Shown: positions 6,886 through 34,125, numbered from the stretch's first letter. The stretch is DNA of 47,551 nucleotides from Fidelibacterota bacterium (GCA_046861385.1 JBHHTW010000015.1:1-47551), one strand, 5' to 3'. The notes: generated from the sequence alone by a model not told the origin. A program made the numbers and translations.

Positions 6886-9015
6886 ATGGTTAAGAAAATT
6901 ATTTTTATTGGAGTTCTTGCTGCGATAGTAGCCTGTTACTTTATTTTTGATCTCAGTCAATATTTGAACTTTCAATATTTAAAAGAGCAACAAGCCCAAT
7001 TTACAGAATATTATAAAGAAAATAGAGTTTTCACAATTTCGGTCTATTCAGGAATATATATCCTGGTGGCCATGCTTTCCTTGCCCGGCGCTACGATTAT
7101 GACGTTAGCCGGCGGAGCTATTTTTGGTTTAATTACAGGAACCATCATTGTTTCAGTTGCCAGCACTATGGGAGCGACGTTTGCAATGTTAAACTGCAGA
7201 TACCTGTTTCGCAATGCATTCCAAAAAAAGCTAAAACCGGTTATGAAAAAGGTAAATCATGGTGTAGAAAAGGACGGCGTTTTGTTTTTATTCATGTCCC
7301 GATTGAGCCCGGTATTTCCATTTTTCCTGGTAAACGCTGCATTCGCTAAAACGTATATTAACGCTGTGACTTATTCACTGATAAGCCAAATCGGGATGTT
7401 ACCTGGAACCATTGTATATGTTAACGCAGGAACACAGATTAGTAAAATGGAGTCTGTCGGTAATATTTTATCTCTAAATATGATTCTTGCTTTTGCACTT
7501 TTGGGTGTGTTTCCACTTGCGTCGAAAAAAGTAGTTCGATGGTTAAAGAACAGAAAATTGAACAAATCATTCATAAAACCAAAATTGTTTGACTATAACA
7601 TGGTTGTTATCGGGGCTGGATCCGGTGGATTGGTGTCTGCCTACATTGCTGCAACAGTGAAAGCGAAAGTTGCCTTGATTGAAAAACATAAAATGGGCGG
7701 AGATTGTCTAAATACAGGATGTGTTCCCAGCAAAGCGTTTATTCGATCTGCAAAAATGCTCCATTATGCCAAACGTGCCAAGGACTGGGGATTTGATTCA
7801 ACAAAAGTAGAATATGATTTTGCTAATGTGATGGAGCGAGTTCAGAATGTCATCAAAAAAATTGAACCACACGATTCTATAGAACGATATACAGAATTGG
7901 GTGTGAATGTGTATGAAGGAGAAGCGAAAATACTTGATCCTTACAAAGTAGAAATAAACGGGGAAATTTTAACAACAAAAAATATTGTTATCGCAACTGG
8001 TGCCCGGCCATTAGTACCGATGATCCCCGGCATTGAGGATGTTCAGCCCCTCACGAGTGATACACTTTGGAATATTCGGGAACTGCCAAAACGATTGGTG
8101 GTTGTGGGTGGCGGACCCATTGGCTGTGAGTTAGCGCAGGCGTTTTCTCGGTTCGGATCAAAAGTAACATTGATAGAGGGAATGAATCGTCTACTTCTGA
8201 AAGAAGATTTGGAGGTGAGCGAGGCTGTCCGAACAAAATTTGAAGCAGAAGGAATTACTGTTCTTACCGGGCATATGGTAGAAGGATTCAAAAATGAGCA
8301 CGGTTCCAAAATAGTCAACTGTGATTGTAAACCGGAAAAAGTAGCAATTGAATGCGATGAAATCATTATGGCCTTGGGAAGAAGCGCAAATGTATCTGGT
8401 TTTGGATTAGAAGAATTGGGAGTAGAAATCAGGCAAAATGGTACCATTGAAACTGATAATTTCTTGCGTACAAATTATCCGAATATATATGCTGTGGGCG
8501 ATGTGACTGGTCCGTACCAATTCACTCATTTTGCTGCTCATCAAGCCTGGTATGCGGCAGTGAATAGTTTGTTTAGTCCGTTTAAAAAATTCAAAACAGA
8601 CTATCGTGTAATTCCCTGGACGACATTTACTGATCCGGAAGTAGCTCGTGTAGGAATCAACGAACAAGAAGCTGAAAAGCAAGGACTCGACTTTGAAGTA
8701 ACTCGTTATGGATTGGATGATTTAGATCGGGCAATCGCTGACGGTGAAGATAGTGGTTTCGTGAAAGTGATTACGCCTAAAGGGAAGGATATAATATTAG
8801 GCGCCACCATTGTTGGTTCTCATGCTGGAGATATTCTTACAGAATTTGTTTTGGCCATGAAACACGGATTAGGATTAAACAAAATTTTGGGTACTATTCA
8901 TGCATATCCCACCATCGGAGAAGCGAATAAATATTTAGCCGGTAACTGGAAAAAAGCCCACGCACCAGCAGGATTATTAAATTGGGTGGAGAAATTTCAT
9001 TCATGGAGAAGATAA
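6886..9015 (+). CDS. VTT/DedA (TVP38) membrane domain fused to a class I pyridine nucleotide-disulfide oxidoreductase (LpdA/MerA-like)
   Basis: N-terminal SLPGATIMTLAGGAIFG...RLSPVFPFFLVN, then GAGSGG, GGDCLNTGCVPSK, GGGPIG and HAYPTIGE. Confidence 0.88.
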   Translation: MVKKIIFIGVLAAIVACYFIFDLSQYLNFQYLKEQQAQFTEYYKENRVFTISVYSGIYILVAMLSLPGATIMTLAGGAIFGLITGTIIVSVASTMGATFAMLNCRYLFRNAFQKKLKPVMKKVNHGVEKDGVLFLFMSRLSPVFPFFLVNAAFAKTYINAVTYSLISQIGMLPGTIVYVNAGTQISKMESVGNILSLNMILAFALLGVFPLASKKVVRWLKNRKLNKSFIKPKLFDYNMVVIGAGSGGLVSAYIAATVKAKVALIEKHKMGGDCLNTGCVPSKAFIRSAKMLHYAKRAKDWGFDSTKVEYDFANVMERVQNVIKKIEPHDSIERYTELGVNVYEGEAKILDPYKVEINGEILTTKNIVIATGARPLVPMIPGIEDVQPLTSDTLWNIRELPKRLVVVGGGPIGCELAQAFSRFGSKVTLIEGMNRLLLKEDLEVSEAVRTKFEAEGITVLTGHMVEGFKNEHGSKIVNCDCKPEKVAIECDEIIMALGRSANVSGFGLEELGVEIRQNGTIETDNFLRTNYPNIYAVGDVTGPYQFTHFAAHQAWYAAVNSLFSPFKKFKTDYRVIPWTTFTDPEVARVGINEQEAEKQGLDFEVTRYGLDDLDRAIADGEDSGFVKVITPKGKDIILGATIVGSHAGDILTEFVLAMKHGLGLNKILGTIHAYPTIGEANKYLAGNWKKAHAPAGLLNWVEKFHSWRR

Positions 9016-14963: not shown

Positions 14964-15365
14964 ATGATTAATAAATATTTTGTGATTATTGGATTAGCAG
15001 CCACTTTATTAATGGCTGGAAGTAATGACCTTTTTGTAAAACACAGCTTGGATGAAGCACTGTCAATTGGGATAGCAGAAGGAAAGGGAGTATTGGTAAA
15101 ATTCCACGCTGACTGGTGCCATTTCTGCAATAAAATGGATAGAGTCACTTTTGCAGATCCAGGTGTACAGAAAGCCATGGAAGGTTATATTTCAATCAAA
15201 GTTGATATAGAAACGAAGGAAGGGCTGGCATTAGCCCGGAAATTTGGTGTCACAGGTTTACCCACCATTGTCATGTTTGATAAGAATGGAAAAAAAATAT
15301 ATCATCAACCCGGTTTTCATTCTGCAAAACAGATGGAAAAGGTATTGAATACAAGGCATGGCTGA
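14964..15365 (+). CDS. Exported thioredoxin-family protein (WCHFC)
   Basis: Signal peptide, FHADWCHFCNKMD and GVTGLPT cis-Pro loop. Confidence 0.88.
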   Translation: MINKYFVIIGLAATLLMAGSNDLFVKHSLDEALSIGIAEGKGVLVKFHADWCHFCNKMDRVTFADPGVQKAMEGYISIKVDIETKEGLALARKFGVTGLPTIVMFDKNGKKIYHQPGFHSAKQMEKVLNTRHG

Positions 15366-16083
15366 TTTACCGGCAATCACTGTTGACCAGATGCGGGAGG
15401 TTGATCGACTCATGGTGGAAGATTTCTATATTAGTCTCCCTCAAATGATGGAACATGCAGGGCGAAATCTAGCTGAATTTGTATTGGAGTGGCTTAAAAA
15501 ACGCAATGAGAAAAAACACTTTAAAATAATAATTGCTTGTGGTACTGGGAACAACGGCGGTGGCGGAATGGTTGCCGCCCGGTTTTTGGCAAACAGGGGT
15601 CATGAAGTGGCTGTTATTTTGGCTGGGAATGCCAAAAAGCTTAAACCTGTTCCAGCGAACCACTGGAAAACACTCCAAGCCATGAACATTCGAACGATCG
15701 AAGCAAACAGCAGAGATTCTATTCAAACATATAATGAATCAGACTTGATCATTGATGCGATGGTTGGATATAGTCTTCAGGGAGAACTGAAAGGTATACC
15801 TGCTCAAATCGCCAAGGAAATTATTCAATCAGGAAAAGAAGTCGTTTCATTGGATGTTCCTTCCGGTCTAGATGCAACAACGGGAAAATCCAGTCCCGAT
15901 TGTATTAAAGCAGTAGCAACAATGACATTGGCATTACCAAAAACCGGATTTAAGGCAGATAATGCAAAAGATTTTACCGGTGATATTTACGTTGCGGATA
16001 TTGGAGTTCCGCCTGTTTTGTACACTCATTTGGATCTATCGGTAATCGACCCTTTTCATGGTCGTTCAGTGATTAAATACTAG
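15358..16083 (+). CDS. nnrE: Stand-alone NAD(P)H-hydrate epimerase (YjeF N-terminal domain)
   Basis: MMEHAG, CGTGNNGGGG, IIDAMVG, SLDVPSG and ADIGVP motifs. Confidence 0.85.
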   Translation: MADLPAITVDQMREVDRLMVEDFYISLPQMMEHAGRNLAEFVLEWLKKRNEKKHFKIIIACGTGNNGGGGMVAARFLANRGHEVAVILAGNAKKLKPVPANHWKTLQAMNIRTIEANSRDSIQTYNESDLIIDAMVGYSLQGELKGIPAQIAKEIIQSGKEVVSLDVPSGLDATTGKSSPDCIKAVATMTLALPKTGFKADNAKDFTGDIYVADIGVPPVLYTHLDLSVIDPFHGRSVIKY

Positions 16084-16098
16084 AACAGTCTTTTTCTC

Positions 16099-17187
16099 CT
16101 ATTGAAACAGCTCAGTATTGGGATAAAAAGCAATTACCGAGAACCAATAAGCAATAAACCCATTAACTGCCCTTAGGTCATTCCCACTTGTGTTGATAGA
16201 GTTTCCTAAAATATTATAAGATTCGCCAGACTTGGACGATTTAAGGGATATTGTTCCATGGTCGATATCCCAATTTTCGATTGAAAGATCGTCATCCGTA
16301 AAAAAAGCAATTGCAATATTATCTTCACCGGAGATAATAGCATTAAAATGCTGTCCGTCTAAATCACCCCGGATAATTACAGGTTGTTTAAAATGGTTGA
16401 TACTAAATGCTTTTGTATTTCCATTTTCACCCACCAAAGCCAATACACGCTCCTTGGCCGGGAGTCTGTCATCTTCATAAGCAATGGGGAAAAATAGATA
16501 ATCTTTGCATTTTCGAGTGTTGCATGATCGATATTTACCATACGGATAGAAATCATAATTACGGGAATGATTTGTCTGGCTATTGATCACTTTTGTGTCA
16601 GGAAAAAGAGATTTCCAGGTTTTCCATGTTGTCTCTAATAAAGGTTGTAAAGCAAATGTACTGTCTTTTAAATCACCGGCGGCAGATGCAAGGTGGAGTT
16701 GGGGCCAATAACTGTCTGTTTCACGATCATACATAATCAGGTTGCTATTGTATAGCAGACCTGAAACCCCAAATTCATTATCTCCTCTGATATTTAAGGC
16801 ACTGCCCGTCAAAGGGCAGTAGGAAATGGAATAACCACTTTCATTAATAATTTCGTGCCAATCTAGAACCGAATGAGGGTAAGCAGTCCATCCATCGCCA
16901 TCCCTAACACCTACAACTAATTCGTCATCGTCTAAGAATTCAATATATTTACCATCTGATGTTGATCGATTCGGATTTTTCAAACTGGGGATACAATCTT
17001 TACCGGGGCATCCTTTTCGAATAAAGCTTGTATTAATGGACCACTCTAATCCAATAAATGATTTTTTTGATTGGGAGTTTGCTGCACAACCAGATAGAAA
17101 CATGAAAGTTGTTAAGGCAACTAAAGATATTATCCTTAAAATCAAATAACTTTGATTTGCTTTACCAGATATAGGATTTGACATCAT
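16099..17187 (-). CDS. DUF3179 domain lipoprotein (paralog 2)
   Basis: LSGC lipobox, KDCIPSL, AYPHSVLDWHEIIN, SYCPLTGS, FGVSGLLYNSNLIMYDRETDSYWPQ and AYWF. Confidence 0.82.
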   Translation of the reverse strand: MMSNPISGKANQSYLILRIISLVALTTFMFLSGCAANSQSKKSFIGLEWSINTSFIRKGCPGKDCIPSLKNPNRSTSDGKYIEFLDDDELVVGVRDGDGWTAYPHSVLDWHEIINESGYSISYCPLTGSALNIRGDNEFGVSGLLYNSNLIMYDRETDSYWPQLHLASAAGDLKDSTFALQPLLETTWKTWKSLFPDTKVINSQTNHSRNYDFYPYGKYRSCNTRKCKDYLFFPIAYEDDRLPAKERVLALVGENGNTKAFSINHFKQPVIIRGDLDGQHFNAIISGEDNIAIAFFTDDDLSIENWDIDHGTISLKSSKSGESYNILGNSINTSGNDLRAVNGFIAYWFSVIAFYPNTELFQ

Positions 17188-17206
17188 GTATAAGTAGATA
17201 ATGGAA

Positions 17207-18145
17207 TTACCTATTGAATATTCCGCCTGTAATAACGGAGACCGCTATCCTGGGGACAGGCTCTGTACCATCGGGAAAAATTCCATTTGAAGACCAGCTT
17301 GAAATAGGAAGAGAAAAGCGCACGTGAAACCAATCCCACGATGAATGGATGGGCGTTACGTCCACACCTATATTGATTTCACTTAACCAGCGAGACTCCC
17401 GCTGTGACTCAAATGGAGATAATGGAGCCAAAAGTTTTTGCGTTTGCAGAGTCGTAAATGGAGATAATGATACTATCTCTGAAAGAAATAGAGTGGAAGA
17501 TAGATGCATATATATCGCATCATCCAGATAAACATTATCCTGAATCTTCAGGTTTTTCCCAAATGAAAAAGATAAAGATACATCCGGAAAAATGAAGGGA
17601 TAATCTATGGACCAGGGGGTTTGGAAATGGTTTATCCAACCAAGGGTTGAGACGGGGACAGCCCCGGTTCTGAATGGAAAATCTTTATTGTTAAATTGGG
17701 GTGTTTGCGGAAAATTCAACTCTCCGAAAATAAACCCCCACTTTTTAGAAAGGAGGTGACGAATCCCTGATTTTAAAAATAGTTGCTGTACCTTGCTGCT
17801 ACTTTTTGAGAATGATAATGATTCCTGTAATTGGAGCCAACTGCCTTCAATTTGAATATATCCGACGCTGTTTTGTCCAATATAATGAGACACTTGGGTA
17901 TGAATGCCCAGGGAATTTCCATAACGAATATTTAAATCATTATCAGACGTATATGAGGAGGTCAATCCTGCCAACCAATTAACGGAATGGTGGTTATCAA
18001 ATCGGGATGGCCATTGAACTTTCCATTGAGTAGCCGTTGTACCACCCCCCTGATCAACTGCACCGACCAGGGAACAGCAGACCTGCCCAGTTAAAAAATT
18101 AATCCATATTGGGATTAATATTAAAAAGTACCGGAATTTTATCAT
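17207..18145 (-). CDS. Exported protein with N-terminal Cys-Cys (QVCCS), possible outer-membrane beta-barrel
   Basis: ATG at 18145 overlaps the upstream TGA (ATGA). Signal peptide, then QVCCS and alternating aromatic/hydrophobic strand-like segments. Confidence 0.6.
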   Translation of the reverse strand: MIKFRYFLILIPIWINFLTGQVCCSLVGAVDQGGGTTATQWKVQWPSRFDNHHSVNWLAGLTSSYTSDNDLNIRYGNSLGIHTQVSHYIGQNSVGYIQIEGSWLQLQESLSFSKSSSKVQQLFLKSGIRHLLSKKWGFIFGELNFPQTPQFNNKDFPFRTGAVPVSTLGWINHFQTPWSIDYPFIFPDVSLSFSFGKNLKIQDNVYLDDAIYMHLSSTLFLSEIVSLSPFTTLQTQKLLAPLSPFESQRESRWLSEINIGVDVTPIHSSWDWFHVRFSLPISSWSSNGIFPDGTEPVPRIAVSVITGGIFNR

Positions 18146-19167
18146 GAATGAATTTCTGTGTCCGGATAAAATGCTGCTTGAGAAAACCAATAGGAGATAA
18201 ATGACTTGGCTGCAACAAGATCATCACTTGCTGCATTTATTGATCGTCCCAAAATATTATATTGATTTCCATTTGAGTCCATAAGAAAAATGGTACCGTT
18301 TTCCGGATCCCATTGTGAGATTGACAAGGTCGACGATGCTTCAAATGCCACTGCCAAATTATCATTTGCCGAAAGGATGATGGCGTAGGTTGCTCCATCG
18401 ATAGTTTCGTTTAAAATGGTTGGTTGATCAAATTGATCAATAGGATATGCTATTTGTATGTTGTCTGTAATGATGGATAGTACTCTTGTTTTGGCTGGCA
18501 GCCGAGTATCAACCGGAGGAACCGGAAAATATATATAATCTCCGCAACTTGAAGAATTGCATGATCGATATCCGCCGTAAGGATAAACATTATAATCCCG
18601 TGAATGTCCCGTTTGAGAATTGACTACTATCGAATTCGGAAATAATTTTTTCCAGGTAGACCATTTTGTTTCTATCATTGTTTTCAGAGCGAGTTCCTCC
18701 CCCTGACGCGAACCTTCAGCCGATGTTAACAACATCTGAGGCCAGTGGCTTTCGGTATCCCTGTCGTACATGATCAAATTGGTATTAAAGAGCATTCCGG
18801 AAACCCCAAATTCACCGGTGGTTTCGATATGAAGAGCGCTCCCGGTTAATGGACAGTAGGAAATGGTGTAACCACTTTCATTCACAATTTCGTGCCAATC
18901 TAATATAGCGTGAGGATAGGCAATATATTGACTACCATTCCAGAGGCCCACGACCAGGTCGTTATCATTCAGGAATTCCAGATGGTCTCCTTCCACATGG
19001 GATTTGTTTGGCTCTTGAAGACTGGGAATACAATCCTTTCCGCTTAAGCATCCATACCTGAGGTAATCCGTATCGATTGTCCAGTCTCGTTGTTTTATTT
19101 CAATTGGTTTTTCATCTTCACAGCTCAATAGAAATAGTATGGGTAATATTAAACCAAAATACTTCAT
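18142..19167 (-). CDS. DUF3179 domain lipoprotein (paralog 1)
   Basis: LLSC lipobox, KDCIPSL, AYPHAILDWHEIVN, SYCPLTGS and FGVSGMLFNTNLIMYDRDTESHWPQ. Confidence 0.82.
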   Translation of the reverse strand: MKYFGLILPILFLLSCEDEKPIEIKQRDWTIDTDYLRYGCLSGKDCIPSLQEPNKSHVEGDHLEFLNDNDLVVGLWNGSQYIAYPHAILDWHEIVNESGYTISYCPLTGSALHIETTGEFGVSGMLFNTNLIMYDRDTESHWPQMLLTSAEGSRQGEELALKTMIETKWSTWKKLFPNSIVVNSQTGHSRDYNVYPYGGYRSCNSSSCGDYIYFPVPPVDTRLPAKTRVLSIITDNIQIAYPIDQFDQPTILNETIDGATYAIILSANDNLAVAFEASSTLSISQWDPENGTIFLMDSNGNQYNILGRSINAASDDLVAAKSFISYWFSQAAFYPDTEIHS

Positions 19168-19177
19168 TTATTTCTCC

Positions 19178-19987
19178 TCATTTTAATAAAACAATTTTAT
19201 GAGTTTTCCGATAGAATGGCGTTGAAACGTCTAAGAAATATATACCTGAGGACAAGTCATTTCCTGAGTAGGTAAAATGATGAGATCCTGCAGGTAATGT
19301 TTTATTAAAAATAGATGATACAATTTTTCCGGATAAATCAATAATGTTGGCTTCCACAAATGTCTCTCTCTTGAGATTCAAGTTCCAAACCATTTGAATA
19401 TTAAATGGGTTAGGAAATGGTGGGAGTATCTCAAAAGATCTTAGTGGTGATTCTCCCTCAATAGCAACCGTTGGAATTTCATTCAATAAGGATTGAATCG
19501 TGAATGCAATTTCGGCTGCATCAAAACCAAAATCGTTGTATCGCACGGTCATGGTGTGATCCAGAATCACTTGTTGCGGAACATACCCGAGACCAAACCA
19601 ATTCCATATGGATGTTGTATCGTCATCCAAAATAGGTGTTGATAATCCTAAATCACCCCATTCCTGACAACTATAAGGATAATCCCACTGACGCCCGAGT
19701 GAAAGGAGAGTAAGACCCTGCTCATTAAATTGATTATTTAAATCAGATACCAATGGAATTTCATTTTGACAATTTGTGCACCAAGTGGTAAAAAAATTCA
19801 ACCAGATTATGTGATATTCCCCACCATTGATTTCACCATTATACTGAGACAATAATGTGTAGCCGGAATCGTTTGCACACGCTTTGATTTCAACGTATTG
19901 ATGATCCAGAGAAATCTTAGATCCAAGTTCATAAGATTGACTGAACATTATAGAAACAAACAGGGTAAGAAGGGTAAGAACTTTCAT
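19178..19987 (-). CDS. Exported TlpA/redoxin-like protein (WCTNC) with C-terminal sorting (T9SS type A-like) domain
   Basis: Signal peptide, NFFTTWCTNCQNE, YVPQQVILD, and C-terminal PFPNPFN...LSSGIYF...KIVLLK. Confidence 0.82.
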   Translation of the reverse strand: MKVLTLLTLFVSIMFSQSYELGSKISLDHQYVEIKACANDSGYTLLSQYNGEINGGEYHIIWLNFFTTWCTNCQNEIPLVSDLNNQFNEQGLTLLSLGRQWDYPYSCQEWGDLGLSTPILDDDTTSIWNWFGLGYVPQQVILDHTMTVRYNDFGFDAAEIAFTIQSLLNEIPTVAIEGESPLRSFEILPPFPNPFNIQMVWNLNLKRETFVEANIIDLSGKIVSSIFNKTLPAGSHHFTYSGNDLSSGIYFLDVSTPFYRKTHKIVLLK

Positions 19988-22020
19988 TTTATTAGTGTCA
20001 CTTTTTGGGTTATGATTGAATTGCCTTTTTGCAATCGAACTAAATACTGTCCGGAAGATAACGGTACACCATTATCATTCATTCCAGACCATGATACGTT
20101 ATGGTTTCCCGCTGAAAAATACCGGTTTGAGAAAATAGTCGCCACCACATTGCCCTTAAGACTGACGATGTCCAAGGAGATCATGGCTGATGGGTAGATA
20201 CTAAACTGCAATGTGGTGACTGGATTAAAAGGGTTTGGATAATTGGGTAAAAGTTTTATTGTTTCCGGAAGCAATAATTCCAAGTCTGTAGAGACATTAA
20301 CGTCTCTATCCAGCAGATTCTCGATTACATTAATCATTTCTCCCGGATCGTATTCAGTTTTCGCAAGCTGAACGATTCCATTTTTATCCACAATGAAATC
20401 CCTTGGGTATGGGGATTGTCCCCCGGGAATATTATATTGACTATATATCCCCGAAACATCCCGCAGCACCGGAAATGTAATTCCCTGGTCTGCTATAAAA
20501 TTCTCAATGACAGCTAACGGTTCGTTTGAAATACCGATCACTTGGACTCCTTCATCTCGATATTCTTGCCAAATGGAAACTTCTATGTCCGAAAACTCCG
20601 GAGCGCATACAGGTCACCATCCTGTGAAAAAGGCAATCACAGCCGGATTTCCGTTTAGATCATTCAGACTCAAGTTGTCTGTTCCATTTACAACAGGTAA
20701 TGTAAAATTCGGAGCATGATCTCCCGGCATGGGACCCATTGGAAAATTCCCAAGTAAACGTACACGTGTTTGATTTTCATCATGATCATTGGATAGAAAT
20801 TCAAGGTTTGCAATCCAGACATTTCCAGAGGGCGAATAATTTACGACCATGGATTGAGACGTTTTGGGCTGAAGTGTCAATTCGATAGGATTGTGAGAAA
20901 AATCAGCTGAGTTAATGTAAATCCCACTGATATTTAGTGGACTAAGTCCATTATTTTCTATTTGAATATGTGATATGGACGTAAATCCATTTTCCGTCCT
21001 GGGATATTCAATCTTGCGAGTACTTAAATCAATATCAGCTTGTTGAATCTCACCGTATTCAAACACAGACATTCGGAGCCATTCTGCAGAGTAAATAATT
21101 TTTCCCATCATGGCTAAAGCCATAACTCTACCTCCAGTACTTTTATAACCAGTCAGCTCCAGCTCTCCCTTTGAATACTCCAGCACTTCTACATCATCCC
21201 AATCAGAGACAGCAACTAAAGAATCATTGACCGAAATGCGTGAGGCATAACCTGTAGTATTGTAATTTGAAACAAAGAACGGATCCACCGGTTCACTCAC
21301 ATCAATCATATCCACACCGGCTGCGCCCACAGCAACAAAAAGGAAATCTCCTCTCTTTTCAACATCTTTAGCGGTACCGGTTGTTACAATTTCAGAAACC
21401 TGAAATGGGGATGAGGGATCGGTGATATCAAAAATTTTAATTCCAAAACCCCCATCAGCGATATAAAGAAAATGATTGTCTGCCGTTGTCGCCCAGGCAT
21501 TATCTGTTTCAATCGTGGAAATCGTTTGTGGAGATTCAGGATTTTCAATATTAAATATTTCTACCCCATTTTGATGACGCGAGGCCAATAATAAATTTTC
21601 ATAAACACTAGTATGTTCATATCGAATAATACTGCCGTCGTTGGAAGTGCCTACAATAGTACTTAGGTGAGTTGGATGAGAAACATCATTGATATTCACA
21701 ACGTGTATCCCGCATTTTCGACCGGATCCATACGCAACATAATCTTTTGCAGACCATGCGTAGATTCTCGCCCAATCGCATCCAAATGCAAAGTATTCAC
21801 CCAATACATTTAGAGCGGAAGGATTTGATATATCTACAAAATTAGTTCCTCCCAACCCCCCGGGTATGATTGCAATAGGTATTTCCTGAACAGTATGTAT
21901 ATACACATCTAACAATTCAATATTACTAATAGACTCCCTTGAACGAATCTGTAGGTTTTTACCGATTAAAATCCCACTGATCAGGAAAATCATTAAGAAT
22001 AATTTCATTCGTAATTGCAT
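19984..22020 (-). CDS. Probable selenoprotein: signal peptide, LVIVD repeats, Ig-like segment, redoxin (W-U-P-V-C) and FlgD/T9SS-like C-terminal domain; in-frame TGA at 20614-20616
   Basis: Reading through TGA gives AVIAFFTGW-U-PVCAPEFSDIEVSIWQEYRDEGVQVIGISNE, in frame with the 19984..20541 ORF. A SECIS-like hairpin follows. Start is 22020 or 22008. Confidence 0.8.
20584..20609 (-). promoter_or_regulatory. Bacterial SECIS-like hairpin immediately 3' of the in-frame UGA
   Basis: mRNA UGA CCUG UAUG CGC UCCGGA GUU UUCGGA CAUA. Lower stem UAUG/CAUA, upper stem UCCGGA/UUCGGA, apical loop beginning GU about 17-18 nt after the UGA. Confidence 0.7.
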
Positions 22021-22073
22021 AATAAATCCGTTATTTGACGGTAAAATGTTAAACGGAATCACTCGTATCAAAA

Positions 22074-22089
22074 CGTCATGGCGAAGACA
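22074..22089 (-). promoter_or_regulatory. Possible Crp/Fnr-family operator TGTCT-N6-TGACG upstream of the selenoprotein operon
   Basis: 8/10 match to TGTCA-N6-TGACA. TAACAT -10-like hexamer on the minus strand at 22051-22046. Confidence 0.45.
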
Positions 22090-22233
22090 AATAATGTAAA
22101 AAAAGAAAGTAACTAAACATCACAGGACTTGACCTAAAAATCAGACCTAGGAGAAGACTTAACTTTAGGGCTGGGAAATGAGCAACATCGTCACGCTCCA
22201 TCGTATTTTTTTGTCCCTGGACGTGAACGTTAG

Positions 22234-22260
22234 CCTGTCGGAATGCTTCGGTAGGCAAGG
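22234..22260. repeat. Degenerate CCTG...CAGG-family palindromic element
   Basis: Minus strand ccttgcctaccgaagcattccgacagg resembles the elements at 14482 and 14685. Confidence 0.45.
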
Positions 22261-22279
22261 ACTCTCCACTCCAATAAAG

Positions 22280-22353
22280 TAGCGGCGCAGGGACTTGAAC
22301 CCCGGACACTCGGATTATGATTCCGATGCTCTAACCAACTGAGCTACGCCGCC
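22280..22353 (-). tRNA. tRNA with CAT anticodon, probably elongator tRNA-Met
   Basis: GGCGGCGTAGCTCAGTTGGTTAGAGCATCGGAATCATAATCCGAGTGTCCGGGGTTCAAGTCCCTGCGCCGCTA folds as a cloverleaf. CCA is not encoded. Ile2 identity is not fully excluded. Confidence 0.93.
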
Positions 22354-24000: not shown

Positions 24001-24033
24001 TGAAAAAAGGGTTGATTTTCAGCCCTTTTTTCA
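24001..24033. terminator. Bidirectional intrinsic terminator between convergent genes
   Basis: tgaaaaaagggttga-ttt-tcagcccttttttca, with an A tract and a T tract flanking the stem. Confidence 0.8.
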
Positions 24034-27024
24034 AATTCCGGATGCTTCCTCTTCATCCATAACTTCCGGTTCATCTGGAATGGGTTTCAACACATGACCT
24101 TCGCCATTTAAACCATTTATGATGATGTTCATGGGCCAATCAGTTCGAATCCATTTTGTATACTTTAATTCCTTAACTATTTCTAGGCTCTTTAGCCAAT
24201 GAAGATCGATCATATCAGTCATGGATTTATGATTGATAGTAAAATACCCCAATCTCATAGATGTGACATTTTGGAAAAAATGACTGCCAAATGATGGATC
24301 AACTGGAAATTCTGGTATTCCGACTTCCACAATGACTTTTGCCTGGCTTATTTGCTGCCACTTAATGGGGATTCCGAGCCATGGGTCAGCTGTACCCCAT
24401 CTTCCTGGCCCGATTAATATGTAAGAAATTTTTGATGGGAGTAACTGAGTTATTGTATCTATTTCTTTTGCAATCAATTGACTATTGGCAGGATCAAATT
24501 GCTCTGGATCAACAAAAATAATATCCTGTATATCACTAAAATGACCATTTCCGAGAGTCAGAGCACTTTTACAAAAAACATTTTCCTTTTTCGTCAAATC
24601 AATTTCATGAATCAATTCTTCATGAACACCAAGAACCATAGGTTTGATTTGCAGTATGCAAAATTCAGGTTTCCGGCCGTCCTTGAATAAATTAACAGCA
24701 AATTCCATTTCAACTTCGCACCCTAATGCACGTTTTCCCATTTGTAATAATTTATCTAGAATCGTATCTAATGGAAATAAACCAAATCTTAATATCGGAG
24801 CAAAAGTAATAACTCTGGTTCCTTTATGCTTTAAGGAATCTCTAACAATGTTGTCCTGAGATGACACAACGCTCGCCACCCAAGATAGAACATTGTCTTT
24901 TTCAGCAGTGGATAAATCGAATAAATCCAGATTATCAGTTTCACTATTTAATAAACGGTTGGGTTTCTTTATCATATTTAACGCATAAAATGAATTTTGA
25001 GAACTGGCTAAGGTTGCTTTAACAGAAAAATATTGTGGAAGAATTGCGGGATATTTTGGTGAAAATCGTAATGATTTTTCACCATCAGCTATGGTTCTTC
25101 CAAGTCCGAGAGCAACATACGCCACTCCTTCATCCCGCTCCATATAAGATACGGGGTAATAATTAAAACTTTGAGCTGTCCCACTAAATGTTGGATAAAA
25201 ACGATTCTCAAAATTTTGTCCCACCAATTCCATGATGATAACGGCCATTTTTTCCTCTTCAAGCGAATGAACAGATGAATCAATTAATGAAAGTGTATCT
25301 TTATAAAACATGGATGCATAAACGCGCTTTATGGCAATACATAATTGGTCTAAAACAACTTTCCTATTTTTATCATTGTTAGGAAGCATATAGGTTGCGT
25401 ACATACCAGCAAGAGGTTGGTATTGTGAATCTTCCAACAAACTCGAAGAACGGACGGCAATGGGGAATTTTAATTCTTTAATGATGGCTCGAAGAGACTT
25501 TTTTAATCCTTTTGATAAAGATGCTTTCTGAAAGAGTTTATTTACTTGTTTATCGTCCTTTGATTTCAATGCTTTATCATAGAGGTTATTTTCTTCGATA
25601 AAGTTTTCAAACTCTGTAGTAGCAATTATAAAGGCTTTCGGTACACGGATCAGGACATTAGGAAACGCTTCAACTAGGGATGGGTCGTCTATCAACGAGT
25701 TAATAAATGCGAGACCACGGGCTTTGCCTCCTAATGAACCTGGACATAATCTTACGAAATTTTTGGTTGGATCGAAATGCTTTGATGAGAATTCTATCAC
25801 GCGCGTTTGTTTTTTTGATTTTATCGATTCATCAATTAATGATACTAAAACGTCTCGATGATCTTCATACGAATCAAATTCTCGATAATTAATCGGTCGA
25901 ATTTTTGAAGCAAGAATAAATTCGCCTCTTGCTGCGAGCCAATTTGAAAAATGATTGCTGCCTGCATGATATTCGATAGATTTTTTTGGTATGGTTTTTA
26001 TTGCATTTTTTAGTCCTTCTAAATTTGTGACTCGATCAATAACTTTACCTGAGGGAGTTTTAAAAATGAAATCTCCAAATCCGAAATTATCAATGATAAA
26101 CTTCCGTAAATCCTGCATGAGTGTTTTGGACTTTTTATGAATGAAATTTACATGGAGTTCTTTAGCTAATTCAGCATTGAACTGATGAGTTGACTGGAGC
26201 AAAATAGGAATCGAAGGGTCTTTAGATCTTGCCCAACGTACGAAATCTTGTCCCGCATTTTTATCATGAATTCCACTTTTCGGGAAACGGATATCGGATA
26301 TTATGCCGAGAGTATTATTCTGATACTCGTTAAAATAATTTTGAGCCTGTTCATAGGTGGTTGCTAACAGAATTTTAGGACGAGCTCTCATGTGGAGAAT
26401 TCGTTCAGTATCATTCAAACTCTTGTCCATTAAATGTTTAGTGTTTCGTGTGATTTCCTTATAGATCAAGGGTAAAATCATGGAATAATACCTGGGTCTA
26501 TCTTCGATCAAAATAATGCAGCGAATATTTCCAATGGAAACATCACGTTTGATATTCATTTTATCTTCGATATGTTTTACAATAGCTAGAAATACATTTG
26601 CATTACCAGACCAGATAAAAATGTGGTCAATCGAAGTATCTATCAGATTCTCAGGTAGTTGTTTTAATTCAGATTCGTCAAAAGTCAACAGAACGATGGG
26701 AAGTGAATTGTTGGTCTGTTTTATTTTTGCGGCAATGGATAGGGGATCCATATCTGATATGCGCATCATAACTATTACTAAATCAATTTTAGTATGCTGG
26801 AGCATATCCATGGCTTGTGCAGCGGTATCCGTGCGCCAAATCCTGGGTGCGTAACTAAAGTTCATTCCTATATATTCAAGCAATATTTGTTCAGTCAGTC
26901 CGCCATCTTCCTCCATCACGAATGCATCGTAAGGACTTGCAATCAATAATATTTCGTGAACTCTATTTAAAATGAGGTCCTGAAACGTATATTTGTCTCC
27001 TTGAGTTGAAATAGTCGCATCCAT
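24031..27024 (-). CDS. Receiver-like domains plus PEP/pyruvate-binding (PPDK N-terminal ATP-grasp) domain protein
   Basis: GSLGGKARGLAF, AVRSSSLLEDS, ALGLGRT, EMEFA, IGPGRWG and SFGSHFFQN. N-terminal ILLIASPYDAF. Confidence 0.85.
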   Translation of the reverse strand: MDATISTQGDKYTFQDLILNRVHEILLIASPYDAFVMEEDGGLTEQILLEYIGMNFSYAPRIWRTDTAAQAMDMLQHTKIDLVIVMMRISDMDPLSIAAKIKQTNNSLPIVLLTFDESELKQLPENLIDTSIDHIFIWSGNANVFLAIVKHIEDKMNIKRDVSIGNIRCIILIEDRPRYYSMILPLIYKEITRNTKHLMDKSLNDTERILHMRARPKILLATTYEQAQNYFNEYQNNTLGIISDIRFPKSGIHDKNAGQDFVRWARSKDPSIPILLQSTHQFNAELAKELHVNFIHKKSKTLMQDLRKFIIDNFGFGDFIFKTPSGKVIDRVTNLEGLKNAIKTIPKKSIEYHAGSNHFSNWLAARGEFILASKIRPINYREFDSYEDHRDVLVSLIDESIKSKKQTRVIEFSSKHFDPTKNFVRLCPGSLGGKARGLAFINSLIDDPSLVEAFPNVLIRVPKAFIIATTEFENFIEENNLYDKALKSKDDKQVNKLFQKASLSKGLKKSLRAIIKELKFPIAVRSSSLLEDSQYQPLAGMYATYMLPNNDKNRKVVLDQLCIAIKRVYASMFYKDTLSLIDSSVHSLEEEKMAVIIMELVGQNFENRFYPTFSGTAQSFNYYPVSYMERDEGVAYVALGLGRTIADGEKSLRFSPKYPAILPQYFSVKATLASSQNSFYALNMIKKPNRLLNSETDNLDLFDLSTAEKDNVLSWVASVVSSQDNIVRDSLKHKGTRVITFAPILRFGLFPLDTILDKLLQMGKRALGCEVEMEFAVNLFKDGRKPEFCILQIKPMVLGVHEELIHEIDLTKKENVFCKSALTLGNGHFSDIQDIIFVDPEQFDPANSQLIAKEIDTITQLLPSKISYILIGPGRWGTADPWLGIPIKWQQISQAKVIVEVGIPEFPVDPSFGSHFFQNVTSMRLGYFTINHKSMTDMIDLHWLKSLEIVKELKYTKWIRTDWPMNIIINGLNGEGHVLKPIPDEPEVMDEEEASGI

Positions 27025-32250: not shown

Positions 32251-32611
32251 TGTCTATATTGGGACGGATATTGTTGATATTGCTCGAATTCGGGATATAA
32301 TAGATTCCCATCGGGACCGATTTCTCTCAAGAACTTATACATCCAAAGAACAATCTTATTGCCTAGGAAAGGCAAACCCCGGGATCCATTACGCTGGACG
32401 ATTTTCTGCAAAAGAAGCTATTAAAAAAGCACTTTTGACTTCTGGGATTCATGAACCCATCAACTGGTTGGAAATGGAAATCATTGCTGATACAACCGGA
32501 GCTCCCATTGTCAATTTAATTGGATCTAGATTTGAATCATTACAATGTCGAGTATCTATTTCCCATACAAATGAACTTGCAATTGCATTTGCTCTTATCA
32601 TAAAAAAATGA
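32240..32611 (+). CDS. acpS: Holo-ACP synthase
   Basis: IGTDIVDIARI, AGRFSAKEA and VSISH motifs. Confidence 0.93.
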   Translation: MPPDVYIGTDIVDIARIRDIIDSHRDRFLSRTYTSKEQSYCLGKANPGIHYAGRFSAKEAIKKALLTSGIHEPINWLEMEIIADTTGAPIVNLIGSRFESLQCRVSISHTNELAIAFALIIKK

Positions 32612-34125
32612 GGCTATTAACCACAGATCAAGCACGAATGTTAGATCAAATTTCCATGGATAAATATGGAGTTTCAGGAATTGAACTCATGGGAACTGCG
32701 GGTAAAGAAATCGCAAAAGAAGCTATATTAATGTTGGCAGAAATTCATGACCCGAGAATTTTGATACTTTCCGGGAAGGGAAATAACGGAGGAGACGGGT
32801 TTGCAGCAGCTATTCATTTAAAAGACTATAATATATCTATTTTTAGTATGATTGAGGATTCTGAAATCAAGGGAGATGCTGCCCATTTTCATGAACAATG
32901 TTTGAAAATGGAGATTCCCATCCATTACCATTCTGATATTCCGGAAGATACTGAGTTTGATCTCATTATTGATGCTATTCTGGGTACGGGAACCAAAGGT
33001 GAATTGAGAGATGATGTATCTAAATGGACTCAATGGATCAACAATCAGCTATGTCCTGTATTGTCTGTCGATTGTCCCACAGGGGTCAATGGAACGAATG
33101 GAAGTAGTTCTCCCAATACAGTTCGAGCATCAAAGACGGTTACATTTGGATTCTCAAAATTGGGTCTGCATTTGAAACAGGGTTCGGAATTTTCCGGTAA
33201 GATTAAAATCATTGATATAGGTTTTCCGGATGTAATGAATGAACTAGAGGGTCTTCTATGGTCAACATTTGAACAAATCAACCTATCGGACGGGTTAAAA
33301 ACTATTTCTATTGATACCTATAAACATAAACAGGGAAAAGTATTGATCATAGCCGGGTCAAAGGGTATGACAGGAGCAGCAATTTTAAGTACTTTCGGAG
33401 CTTTGAGGTCTGGTGCCGGTTTAACCATAACCTGCGCACCCGATTCTATCAATGATATATATGAGAAAACTATTATCGAGGGTATGACTGTATCCTGTGC
33501 AGACAATGGTACAGGATATTTTATTGAAGAAAGTTATGAAAAAATATCTTCAAAATTTGACTGGTGTGATGCGATAATAATTGGACCGGGTCTCGGCGAG
33601 AGTGACGCAACGAAACGATTGGTAAAAAAAGTAATTCTCAATTCAACCCGGCCTTTGGTAATTGATGCTGATGCATTACGAATATTTAATAAGAATACTG
33701 ACCTATTTAATCTCATTAATGTTCCATTCATCATAACACCTCATGAAGGAGAATTTTGTAGAATTCTAGGAATTCATCGTGATGAATTAATCAATGGATT
33801 TCCAACAATTATTGAATCCTTTATGAACACATTTCCCGGTGTGCTCATTTTGAAAAATGCGCCTACGCTGACATTTTATAAGCATAATGCAATCGTGAAT
33901 ACATCAGGGAATCCTGGAATGGCAACCGCAGGAATGGGAGATGTCTTGTCCGGTATTATTGGTGCGCTTGTTTCTCAGGGGGTGAATGCTTTTACGGCAT
34001 CACAAACAAGTGTCTATTTACACGGTTTAGCTGCAGATCATTTGTCTGTTTCAAAAGGATATAGAGGATTAATTGCATCTGATCTTTTAAATGAGTTACC
34101 CAATGTCCTCCACGAATTTGAATAA
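32608..34125 (+). CDS. nnr: Bifunctional NAD(P)H-hydrate epimerase/dehydratase (YjeF)
   Basis: GKGNNGGDG, DAILGTG, GKVLIIAGS...GAA, IDADAL, TPHEGE and ATAGMGDVL motifs. Confidence 0.92.
   Translation: MRLLTTDQARMLDQISMDKYGVSGIELMGTAGKEIAKEAILMLAEIHDPRILILSGKGNNGGDGFAAAIHLKDYNISIFSMIEDSEIKGDAAHFHEQCLKMEIPIHYHSDIPEDTEFDLIIDAILGTGTKGELRDDVSKWTQWINNQLCPVLSVDCPTGVNGTNGSSSPNTVRASKTVTFGFSKLGLHLKQGSEFSGKIKIIDIGFPDVMNELEGLLWSTFEQINLSDGLKTISIDTYKHKQGKVLIIAGSKGMTGAAILSTFGALRSGAGLTITCAPDSINDIYEKTIIEGMTVSCADNGTGYFIEESYEKISSKFDWCDAIIIGPGLGESDATKRLVKKVILNSTRPLVIDADALRIFNKNTDLFNLINVPFIITPHEGEFCRILGIHRDELINGFPTIIESFMNTFPGVLILKNAPTLTFYKHNAIVNTSGNPGMATAGMGDVLSGIIGALVSQGVNAFTASQTSVYLHGLAADHLSVSKGYRGLIASDLLNELPNVLHEFE

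Follow-up and report, generated by a model that had tools for sequence, protein, structure and literature searches.

Five genes on the minus strand of a 47,551-nucleotide stretch of DNA from a Fidelibacterota bacterium (GCA_046861385.1, JBHHTW010000015.1:1-47551; the whole stretch is referred to here as the window) form a compact operon at positions 16099-22020, and their products are predicted envelope proteins that carry cysteine (Cys) or selenocysteine (Sec) motifs. The obligate core of this operon is a gene for a DUF3179 protein (G3) followed directly by the gene for a predicted outer-membrane β-barrel of a new family (G4), an order that recurred in every related locus that was read. Around this pair the genes are modular and do not form a fixed unit: G1 encodes a redoxin with strong sequence evidence of being a selenoprotein and with a type IX secretion system (T9SS) sorting tail, G2 its Cys-containing paralogue, and G5 a second DUF3179 protein. 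We tentatively propose, at somewhat less than an even chance, that these proteins form a Mer-like cysteine/selenocysteine exchange relay spanning the outer membrane. The window corresponds to contig C93 in a genome of 2.43 Mb that is 97.85% complete, from a phylum that appears under the names Marinimicrobia, Neomarinimicrobiota and Fidelibacterota; loci (L), families (f), genomes (G000, G174) and contigs (C) are given by label only where they must be told apart.

The DUF3179-barrel pair

In 29 of 29 loci from eight family-level groups, the DUF3179 gene lies directly upstream of the barrel gene on the same strand, and the two often overlap by 4 nt. These loci comprise 16 of 16 from genome contigs, 11 of 11 further distinct loci and two that were met while sampling G1; the 11 came from 20 fetched regions, the other nine of which repeated contigs already sampled. 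Identical matches were obtained for L028 and L031, which are two contigs from a single assembly, and contig ends truncate L033 and L037. Because the order recurs in all 29 related loci, the arrangement lies far beyond chance, and the co-occurrence of homologues that the initial annotation had asked to see is borne out for this core. Its view of the five genes as one dedicated system had to be given up, as only the DUF3179 and barrel genes are obligate, G1 mostly occurs without the barrel, and a downstream second DUF3179 gene (G5) is confined to four loci, namely the window, L022, L023 and L024. The order G1-G2-DUF3179-barrel was found in the window and seven loci (L022, L023, L024, L026, L027, L036 and L050), and the order DUF3179-barrel-Trx2-G1, in which Trx2 is an exported thioredoxin, in L048, L070 and L076, with a MerT-like gene before G1 in L070; the two orders fall in families f1/f4 and f5/f9/f19, respectively. 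In L043, G1 lies ∼2.6 kb away on the opposite strand. The barrel profile matched 36 of 401 phylum genomes and 27 of 190 high-quality genomes, which are lower bounds because a diverged subgroup scores weakly. G1 was present in 100 of the 401 genomes, and in 19 of 36 barrel-positive versus 81 of 365 barrel-negative genomes as raw counts that ignore relatedness.

No match to G4 was found in Pfam (E ≤ 0.01, PF13557 and PF02411 included) or NCBIfam. Its AlphaFold2 model, made with 20 sequences, is a 12-strand barrel with a predicted local distance difference test (pLDDT) score of 78.8 and a predicted TM-score (pTM) of 0.75. A Foldseek search of the PDB with this model returned 127 barrel chains at E ≤ 0.001, with the COG4313 channel 4rl8 as the best match (TM 0.56/0.64) and FapF and autotransporter translocators among the others, and structural neighbours in the Atlas carry PF13557 (Phenol_MetA_deg). 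The putative barrel of the initial annotation is thus supported by the model and its 12-strand matches, and G4 is predicted to be an outer-membrane β-barrel. A word-indexed search with G4 yielded 22 clusters, of which all three named ones are Candidatus Marinimicrobia, and a profile search of 1.84 billion representatives yielded 14 proteins, with E ≤ 1e-10 in every case. Judged by sequence, G4 is a new barrel family that has no remote relatives among these representatives; a distant barrel subgroup joins the same family by hhalign (probability 98.6%, E 1e-15). The predicted mature protein begins with Q-V-C-C-S, in which Q21, V22, C23, C24 and S25 are invariant in the 20 sequences, and Q-x-C-C-[S/T] is kept at the mature N-terminus in all 29 loci, including relatives with barrel identities of 22-31%.

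Both DUF3179 products match PF11376 over profile positions 1-292 of 292 (G3, E 5e-65, 220 bits; G5, E 7e-62, 210 bits), share 54% identity and have the same Cys pattern. G3 contains a lipobox (LLSC), the reactive-site motif YCPLTG and the Cys pairs C40/C46 and C203/C208, and G5 contains LSGC, YCPLT and the pairs C60/C65 and C222/C227; by their lipoboxes, both are putative lipoproteins. In an alignment of 41 sequences C105, P106 and T108 are invariant and C16 is conserved in at least 90%. Copies in related loci all have YCPLTG and the two Cys pairs, and the pairs are absent from more distant relatives; the sole thiol conserved throughout the family is the Cys of YCPLTG, which some relatives replace by Sec, and a resolving Cys is lacking in the CxxT form. 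This large family is found in bacteria and archaea, with 1566 clusters at E ≤ 1e-10 for this single query. DUF3179 appears as a selenoprotein family with the motif UxxC/T, with no function given, in the portions consulted of two reviews (PMC9312934, PMC13188914), and a literature search by its name or accession found no assigned function. The AlphaFold2 model of G3 has a pLDDT of 89; it gave no Foldseek match in the PDB at E ≤ 0.001, and the best sequence-profile match to the PDB was at E 0.28. With VIA-align, the C-terminal domain appeared Rieske-like (best Z 8.0, root-mean-square deviation 3.1, 91 residues), a level that common arrangements also reach; no conserved cluster-binding Cys or His was found in this domain, and the comparison barely covered the N-terminal domain with the reactive Cys. 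A third DUF3179 copy in the genome, on contig C78, is flanked by acyl-CoA dehydrogenase and PhoD-like genes and lacks a thiol context.

A comparable pairing was found outside the phylum. Among ten DUF3179 contexts surveyed on plasmids, six, all haloarchaeal, consist of a CxxT-type DUF3179 gene followed by a gene for a hydrophobic membrane protein of 160-205 residues, five of which overlap the DUF3179 gene by 4-8 nt and one of which follows after a 116-nt gap. Each of these partners has exactly three Cys, including LLSGxxCCGP, and a faint resemblance to MerT (best E 0.004, 17.6 bits, below the cut-off). Since a CxxT-type DUF3179 protein without a resolving Cys is encoded together with a membrane partner bearing vicinal Cys, helical in the archaea and a predicted barrel in the window, the pattern fits intermolecular thiol exchange. 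No such downstream partner accompanies three bacterial CxxC-type copies on plasmids. The Thiothrix copy faces genes for a GDCCVxC (seleno)protein, for which a literature search found nothing, and a thioredoxin-domain protein, and the Deinococcus deserti copy sits in a chromate/heavy-metal resistance island. Strict pairing with Cys-Cys membrane partners gives the DUF3179 family a testable candidate role, in which a thiophilic cargo or reducing power would be moved through the cell envelope by way of a mixed disulfide or shared metal site between two defined cysteines.

A selenoprotein with a surface-sorting tail and its paralogue

Read through its in-frame TGA, G1 is one protein of 695 residues that comprises a signal peptide, an LVIVD β-propeller (Pfam E 3e-16 for the repeats), a choice-of-anchor-D immunoglobulin (Ig)-like domain, an AhpC-TSA/Redoxin domain at residues 449-568 (Pfam E 6e-24, 84.8 bits against a cut-off of 26) and a T9SS type A sorting domain (TIGR04183, 24.8 bits against a cut-off of 23). 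The initial annotation had called it a Sec redoxin, which is right for the redoxin but incomplete for the protein, since ∼430 N-terminal residues are made up of the LVIVD repeats and the Ig-like domain. A match to SBP56 (selenium-binding protein) was weak, at 16.6 bits against a cut-off of 34, and was not used.

The sequence evidence that G1 is a real selenoprotein is strong. The TGA at the W-U-P-V-C site was found with conserved flanks in ten of ten orthologues that were read, and a scan of the 401 genomes gave ∼100 matches of the G1 family, nearly every one of which has a single TGA. The 20-nt hairpin block that follows it, resembling a selenocysteine insertion sequence (SECIS), is identical in seven of seven orthologues, including six wobble positions, whereas the flanking codons vary at the wobble position; the hairpin shows no covariation, has a fold z-score of -0.13 against shuffled sequences and has no match in Rfam. 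The genome encodes tRNA-Sec (62.6 bits; anticodon TCA by ARAGORN) as well as selA (521 bits), selB (360 bits) and selD (404 bits), all above their cut-offs, with selA and selB adjacent. Furthermore, the paralogue G2 has a Cys counterpart at the Sec position, W-C-T-N-C, in the matching AhpC-TSA active-site region. That the TGA is instead a true stop, making G1 two genes or a pseudogene, is extremely improbable: translation table 11 does split the frame into open reading frames at 20614-22071 and 19984-20541, and the hairpin is no more stable than shuffled sequence, but the AhpC/TSA domain spans the TGA, a stop would interrupt its active-site motif, and the conserved TGA with both flanks, the block invariant at wobble sites and the full Sec machinery all argue for decoding. 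The selD match (G000:C97:10536-11462, 403.6 bits) itself holds one in-frame TGA, which makes it probable that this selenophosphate synthetase is a selenoprotein too.

TlpA-like and redoxin UxxC selenoproteins are families already listed in the part consulted of PMC13188914, so that the redoxin part of G1 is of a known kind. As in those proteins, a thioredoxin-fold redoxin carries U-x-x-C in place of C-x-x-C; G1 differs from them in that this domain is fused to an LVIVD propeller, an Ig-like domain and a T9SS tail, and fusion of a UxxC redoxin to a propeller and T9SS tail is absent from the portions searched of published selenoprotein family tables. A T9SS-sorted selenoprotein in a quarter of the sampled Marinimicrobia genomes suggests that cell-surface selenium chemistry is common in an abundant ocean phylum. 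In L048 (2190-4076, minus strand) a dockerin type I domain takes the place of the T9SS tail at the end of the G1 orthologue, which suggests a different mode of surface anchoring.

G2 is a redoxin that matches AhpC-TSA at E 8e-9 (35.9 bits against a cut-off of 26) and has a T9SS tail of its own (Por_Secre_tail, 31.1 bits against 27; TIGR04183, 30.9 bits against 23). It is 27% identical to the redoxin and tail of G1 and thus represents a Cys paralogue of the C-terminal half of that protein. The best NCBIfam match of both is ResA (G1, E 1e-16, 60.9 bits; G2, E 2e-11, 43.9 bits), and because these scores are far below the equivalog cut-off of 170, neither is ResA itself. The sorting domains proposed earlier for both proteins are confirmed, TIGR04183 being above its cut-off in each. 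The genome also encodes PorU (584.7 bits against a cut-off of 420) and has 40 further tail-only T9SS matches. Carrying T9SS tails, G1 and G2 are therefore expected outside the outer membrane.

Operon layout and neighbouring genes

The layout of five co-oriented genes was re-read as first annotated (Table 1), with ATGA overlaps between G1 and G2 (19984-19987) and between G3 and G4 (18142-18145), a 10-nt spacing between G2 and G3 that contains GGAG, and a 19-nt spacing between G4 and G5. The Cys/Sec motifs, signal peptides and lipoboxes that mark all five products as extracytoplasmic were likewise found, the signal peptides and lipoboxes being read by eye. Promoter-like matches across the region numbered 23 versus 22.1 expected and terminator-like matches five versus 4.9, that is, at chance level, and co-transcription of the five genes is thus inferred from their packing. 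No Rfam match was found within the operon. A tRNA-Met gene on the same strand precedes G1 by ∼260 nt, and the operon promoter should therefore lie within 22021-22278 or upstream of the tRNA gene.

Table 1. Positions of the operon genes, of the Sec-decoding elements and of neighbouring features in the window
Feature	Position	Strand	Description
G1	19984-22071 (read through)	-	Start probably ATG at 22020
In-frame TGA of G1 read as Sec	20614-20616	-	Residue 486, motif W-U-P-V-C, inside the AhpC-TSA domain
SECIS-like hairpin	20585-20604	-	6-bp stem, GUU loop; starts 11 nt after the UGA
G2	19178-19987	-	Signal peptide, TlpA/ResA-like redoxin, T9SS tail
G3	18142-19167	-	Putative DUF3179 lipoprotein
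G4	17207-18145	-	ATG at 18145; predicted outer-membrane barrel
G5	16099-17187	-	Second putative DUF3179 lipoprotein
Trx2	14964-15365	+	Exported thioredoxin, W-C-H-F-C; Thioredoxin_2 E 3e-17; convergent to the operon
YjeF_N gene	15358-16083	+	Stand-alone YjeF_N
tRNA-Met	22279-22353	-	
DedA-oxidoreductase fusion	6886-9015	+	709 residues
PPDK_N protein	24031-27024	-	997 residues
Second NAD(P)HX repair gene	32608-34125	+	YjeF_N and carbohydrate-kinase fusion

Trx2 resembles the NCBIfam C-terminal region of DsbD (E 2e-19, below the cut-off). It was found within the fetched stretch in 16 of the 29 loci and follows the barrel gene on the same strand in L047, L048, L070 and L076; glutaredoxin or thioredoxin-like genes flank other related loci. 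The single DsbD_TM gene of the genome is unlinked, on contig C58. The stand-alone YjeF_N gene overlaps Trx2 by 8 nt and is kept beside the operon in many relatives, and a second gene for NAD(P)HX repair is located 16 kb away.

A recurrent four-gene cassette encodes a MerT-HMA protein (NCBIfam MerTP, 130 bits, below the cut-off of 180), a CopZ-like metallochaperone (103 bits with the CopZ N-terminal type, above the cut-off of 100), an ArsR-family regulator and a barrel-like protein of ∼250 residues. It lies beside the DUF3179-barrel pair in four loci, convergent in L025 and L029 and co-directional in L047 and L076, and a MerT-like gene lies within the L070 cluster. Coordinates of the cassette are G000:C5:26951-29322 in this organism, L025:9192-11679 and L047:2515-5282. 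The ∼250-residue barrel-like protein has no family assignment, although one member has a weak Phenol_MetA_deg match (E 6e-4). An unannotated exported family with two members of 41% mutual identity (L076:1496-2446, plus strand; L070:9986-10684, minus strand) is encoded between the mer-like cassette and the DUF3179 gene, and the mature part of the L076 member starts with Q-C-A-M-C. The metal(loid) link of the initial annotation is supported by context, MerT-like, MerT-HMA, ArsR and CopZ-like neighbours being present in five of the 29 loci and mer-like neighbours being absent from the other 24.

Two other candidates for a mercury connection were rejected. Marinimicrobia have been reported as Hg methylators (PMC8163782), and the part of that text consulted has no mention of merT, merA, arsR, uptake, thiol or transporter; a link to methylation was dropped, as hgcA is rare in the phylum, never accompanies the barrel and was not found here. 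The fusion of a DedA/VTT membrane domain to a class-I pyridine nucleotide-disulfide oxidoreductase at 6886-9015 has, as its best NCBIfam matches, FAD-containing oxidoreductase, lipoamide dehydrogenase and MerA, the first and last of which are below their cut-offs; as a MerA it was discarded, with 391 bits against a cut-off of 454 and no C-terminal Cys pair. Elsewhere in the window, one protein combines response-regulator receiver-like regions with a PPDK_N (phosphoenolpyruvate-utilizing, ATP-binding) domain in an unusual architecture.

Candidate routes across the outer membrane and known systems

MerT receives Hg(II) from MerP on a Cys-Cys pair. By analogy, we infer that the YCPLTG thiol of DUF3179 and the Cys-Cys pair of the barrel may exchange a ligand, and that a thiophilic cargo, either a soft metal(loid) (Hg, Cu or As) or a chalcogen (Se or S), would thereby cross the outer membrane. 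In the lineage of the window an outer end would have been added, with T9SS-exported G1 and G2 capturing the cargo or keeping thiols reduced and the G1 propeller possibly binding substrate, while on the inner side this task would fall to the product of the neighbouring gene, a periplasmic DsbD-gamma-like thioredoxin. Prediction of a complex between DUF3179 (17-341) and the barrel (21-312) gave a score of 0.00, which speaks neither for nor against binding.

Several observations weigh against such a relay. The genomes behind the 29 loci are related and do not represent independent samples. G1 occurs largely apart from the pair: no barrel was detected in 81 of the 100 genomes that have it, and 16 of 18 G1-centred loci have no DUF3179 gene within 5 kb. 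Mer-like neighbours occur in only five of the 29 loci, neither MerA nor MerB was seen in these, and in the window no mer-like gene stands beside the operon, the MerT-HMA cassette of the genome being on contig C5. In addition, hgcA was above its cut-off in four of the 401 phylum genomes, none of which has the barrel, and it was not found in the genome studied here. Finally, the Cys-Cys N-terminal segment of the barrel has a pLDDT below 50, and its position relative to the lumen is not fixed by the model.

A reducing-power relay that carries no metal, in which the barrel would be the outer-membrane counterpart of CcdA/DsbD, is rather unlikely. Electrons would pass from the periplasmic DsbD-gamma-like thioredoxin to the N-terminal Cys pair of the barrel, and from there to DUF3179 and the surface redoxins, which would reduce an oxidized substrate outside the cell. 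The TlpA/ResA-like character of G1 and G2, the recurrence of Trx2 near the pair and behind the barrel, and the glutaredoxin and thioredoxin-like genes at other loci all favour this view, and 12-strand autotransporter barrels keep a polypeptide segment in their lumen. However, to our knowledge no thiol relay through an outer-membrane barrel has been described. UxxC/T selenoprotein forms are typical of redox catalysis according to the parts consulted of PMC9312934 and PMC13188914, which also agrees with a reducing role. On the other hand, the only DsbD_TM gene is unlinked, the MerT-like, ArsR and CopZ-like neighbours would be left unexplained, and the adjacency of Trx2 in f1 and f4 may be inherited synteny, because there it lies on the opposite strand together with YjeF_N. 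Hand-over of a cargo is slightly favoured over transfer of reducing power owing to the mer-like, ArsR and CopZ-like neighbours.

It is improbable that two unrelated modules merely adjoin, with G1 and G2 as surface antioxidant or thiol peroxidase-type enzymes and DUF3179 and the barrel as a separate porin-lipoprotein pair. The wider distribution of G1 than of the barrel agrees with this arrangement, as do family f24 and G174, where G1 and the barrel are both present on separate contigs, and the AhpC/TSA family matched by G1 includes peroxiredoxins. It is countered by the joining of G1 to the pair in two gene orders, by the enrichment of G1 in barrel-positive genomes, given as raw counts that ignore relatedness, and by the ATGA overlaps and 10-nt gap that tie G2 to G3 in the window.

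Extended to both domains, the proposed exchange relay leads to a bolder and unlikely generalization. A CxxT-type DUF3179 protein with a vicinal Cys-Cys membrane partner would be an unrecognized trans-membrane thiol shuttle of Bacteria and Archaea. In Marinimicrobia the partner would be an outer-membrane barrel whose Cys-Cys segment works through the lumen, and the shuttle would be extended to the surface by a widespread T9SS selenoprotein. It would constitute the first known thiol-exchange conduit across an outer membrane, and in the ocean interior it would serve to take up or detoxify a thiophilic trace element such as Se or Hg. Should selenium or a trace metal(loid) prove to be the cargo, the system would be relevant to the passage of these elements through the outer membrane.

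Among known systems, the COG4313/Phenol_MetA_deg channels (4rl8) share with G4 a 12-strand barrel of similar size; G4 differs in having no sequence match to PF13557, and the Q-x-C-C-[S/T] segment and obligate DUF3179 partner are specific to its family. The CcdA-Etrx-MsrAB2 system of Streptococcus pneumoniae exemplifies the CcdA-type extracytoplasmic reducing pathways. Like the CcdA/DsbD-TlpA/ResA pathways, the operon places TlpA/ResA-like redoxins beside a thiol client with a DsbD-gamma-like thioredoxin alongside, whereas its redoxins carry T9SS tails, one of them uses Sec, and the locus has no CcdA but a Cys-pair barrel where a membrane conduit would be expected.

The parallel proposed for the DUF3179-barrel pair is that of MerP and MerT in the mer operons (Tn21/Tn501). 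It differs from them in that G4 is a predicted outer-membrane β-barrel and not an inner-membrane helical protein, DUF3179 does not have the HMA fold, and no MerA, MerB or MerR was seen. G4 was also considered as a MerT and rejected, as it is a predicted β-barrel without a PF02411 match and has only the vicinal Cys pair in common; this lowers the case that it is a MerT, but not that it works like one. In common with MerP and MerT, an exported thiol protein would pass a thiophilic ligand to vicinal cysteines of a membrane protein. Five of the 29 related loci adjoin MerT-like or MerT-HMA genes, and a hydrophobic stretch of the archaeal DUF3179 partner includes Cys-Cys-Gly-Pro. Neither the barrel family nor its strict coupling with DUF3179 is represented in Pfam or NCBIfam.

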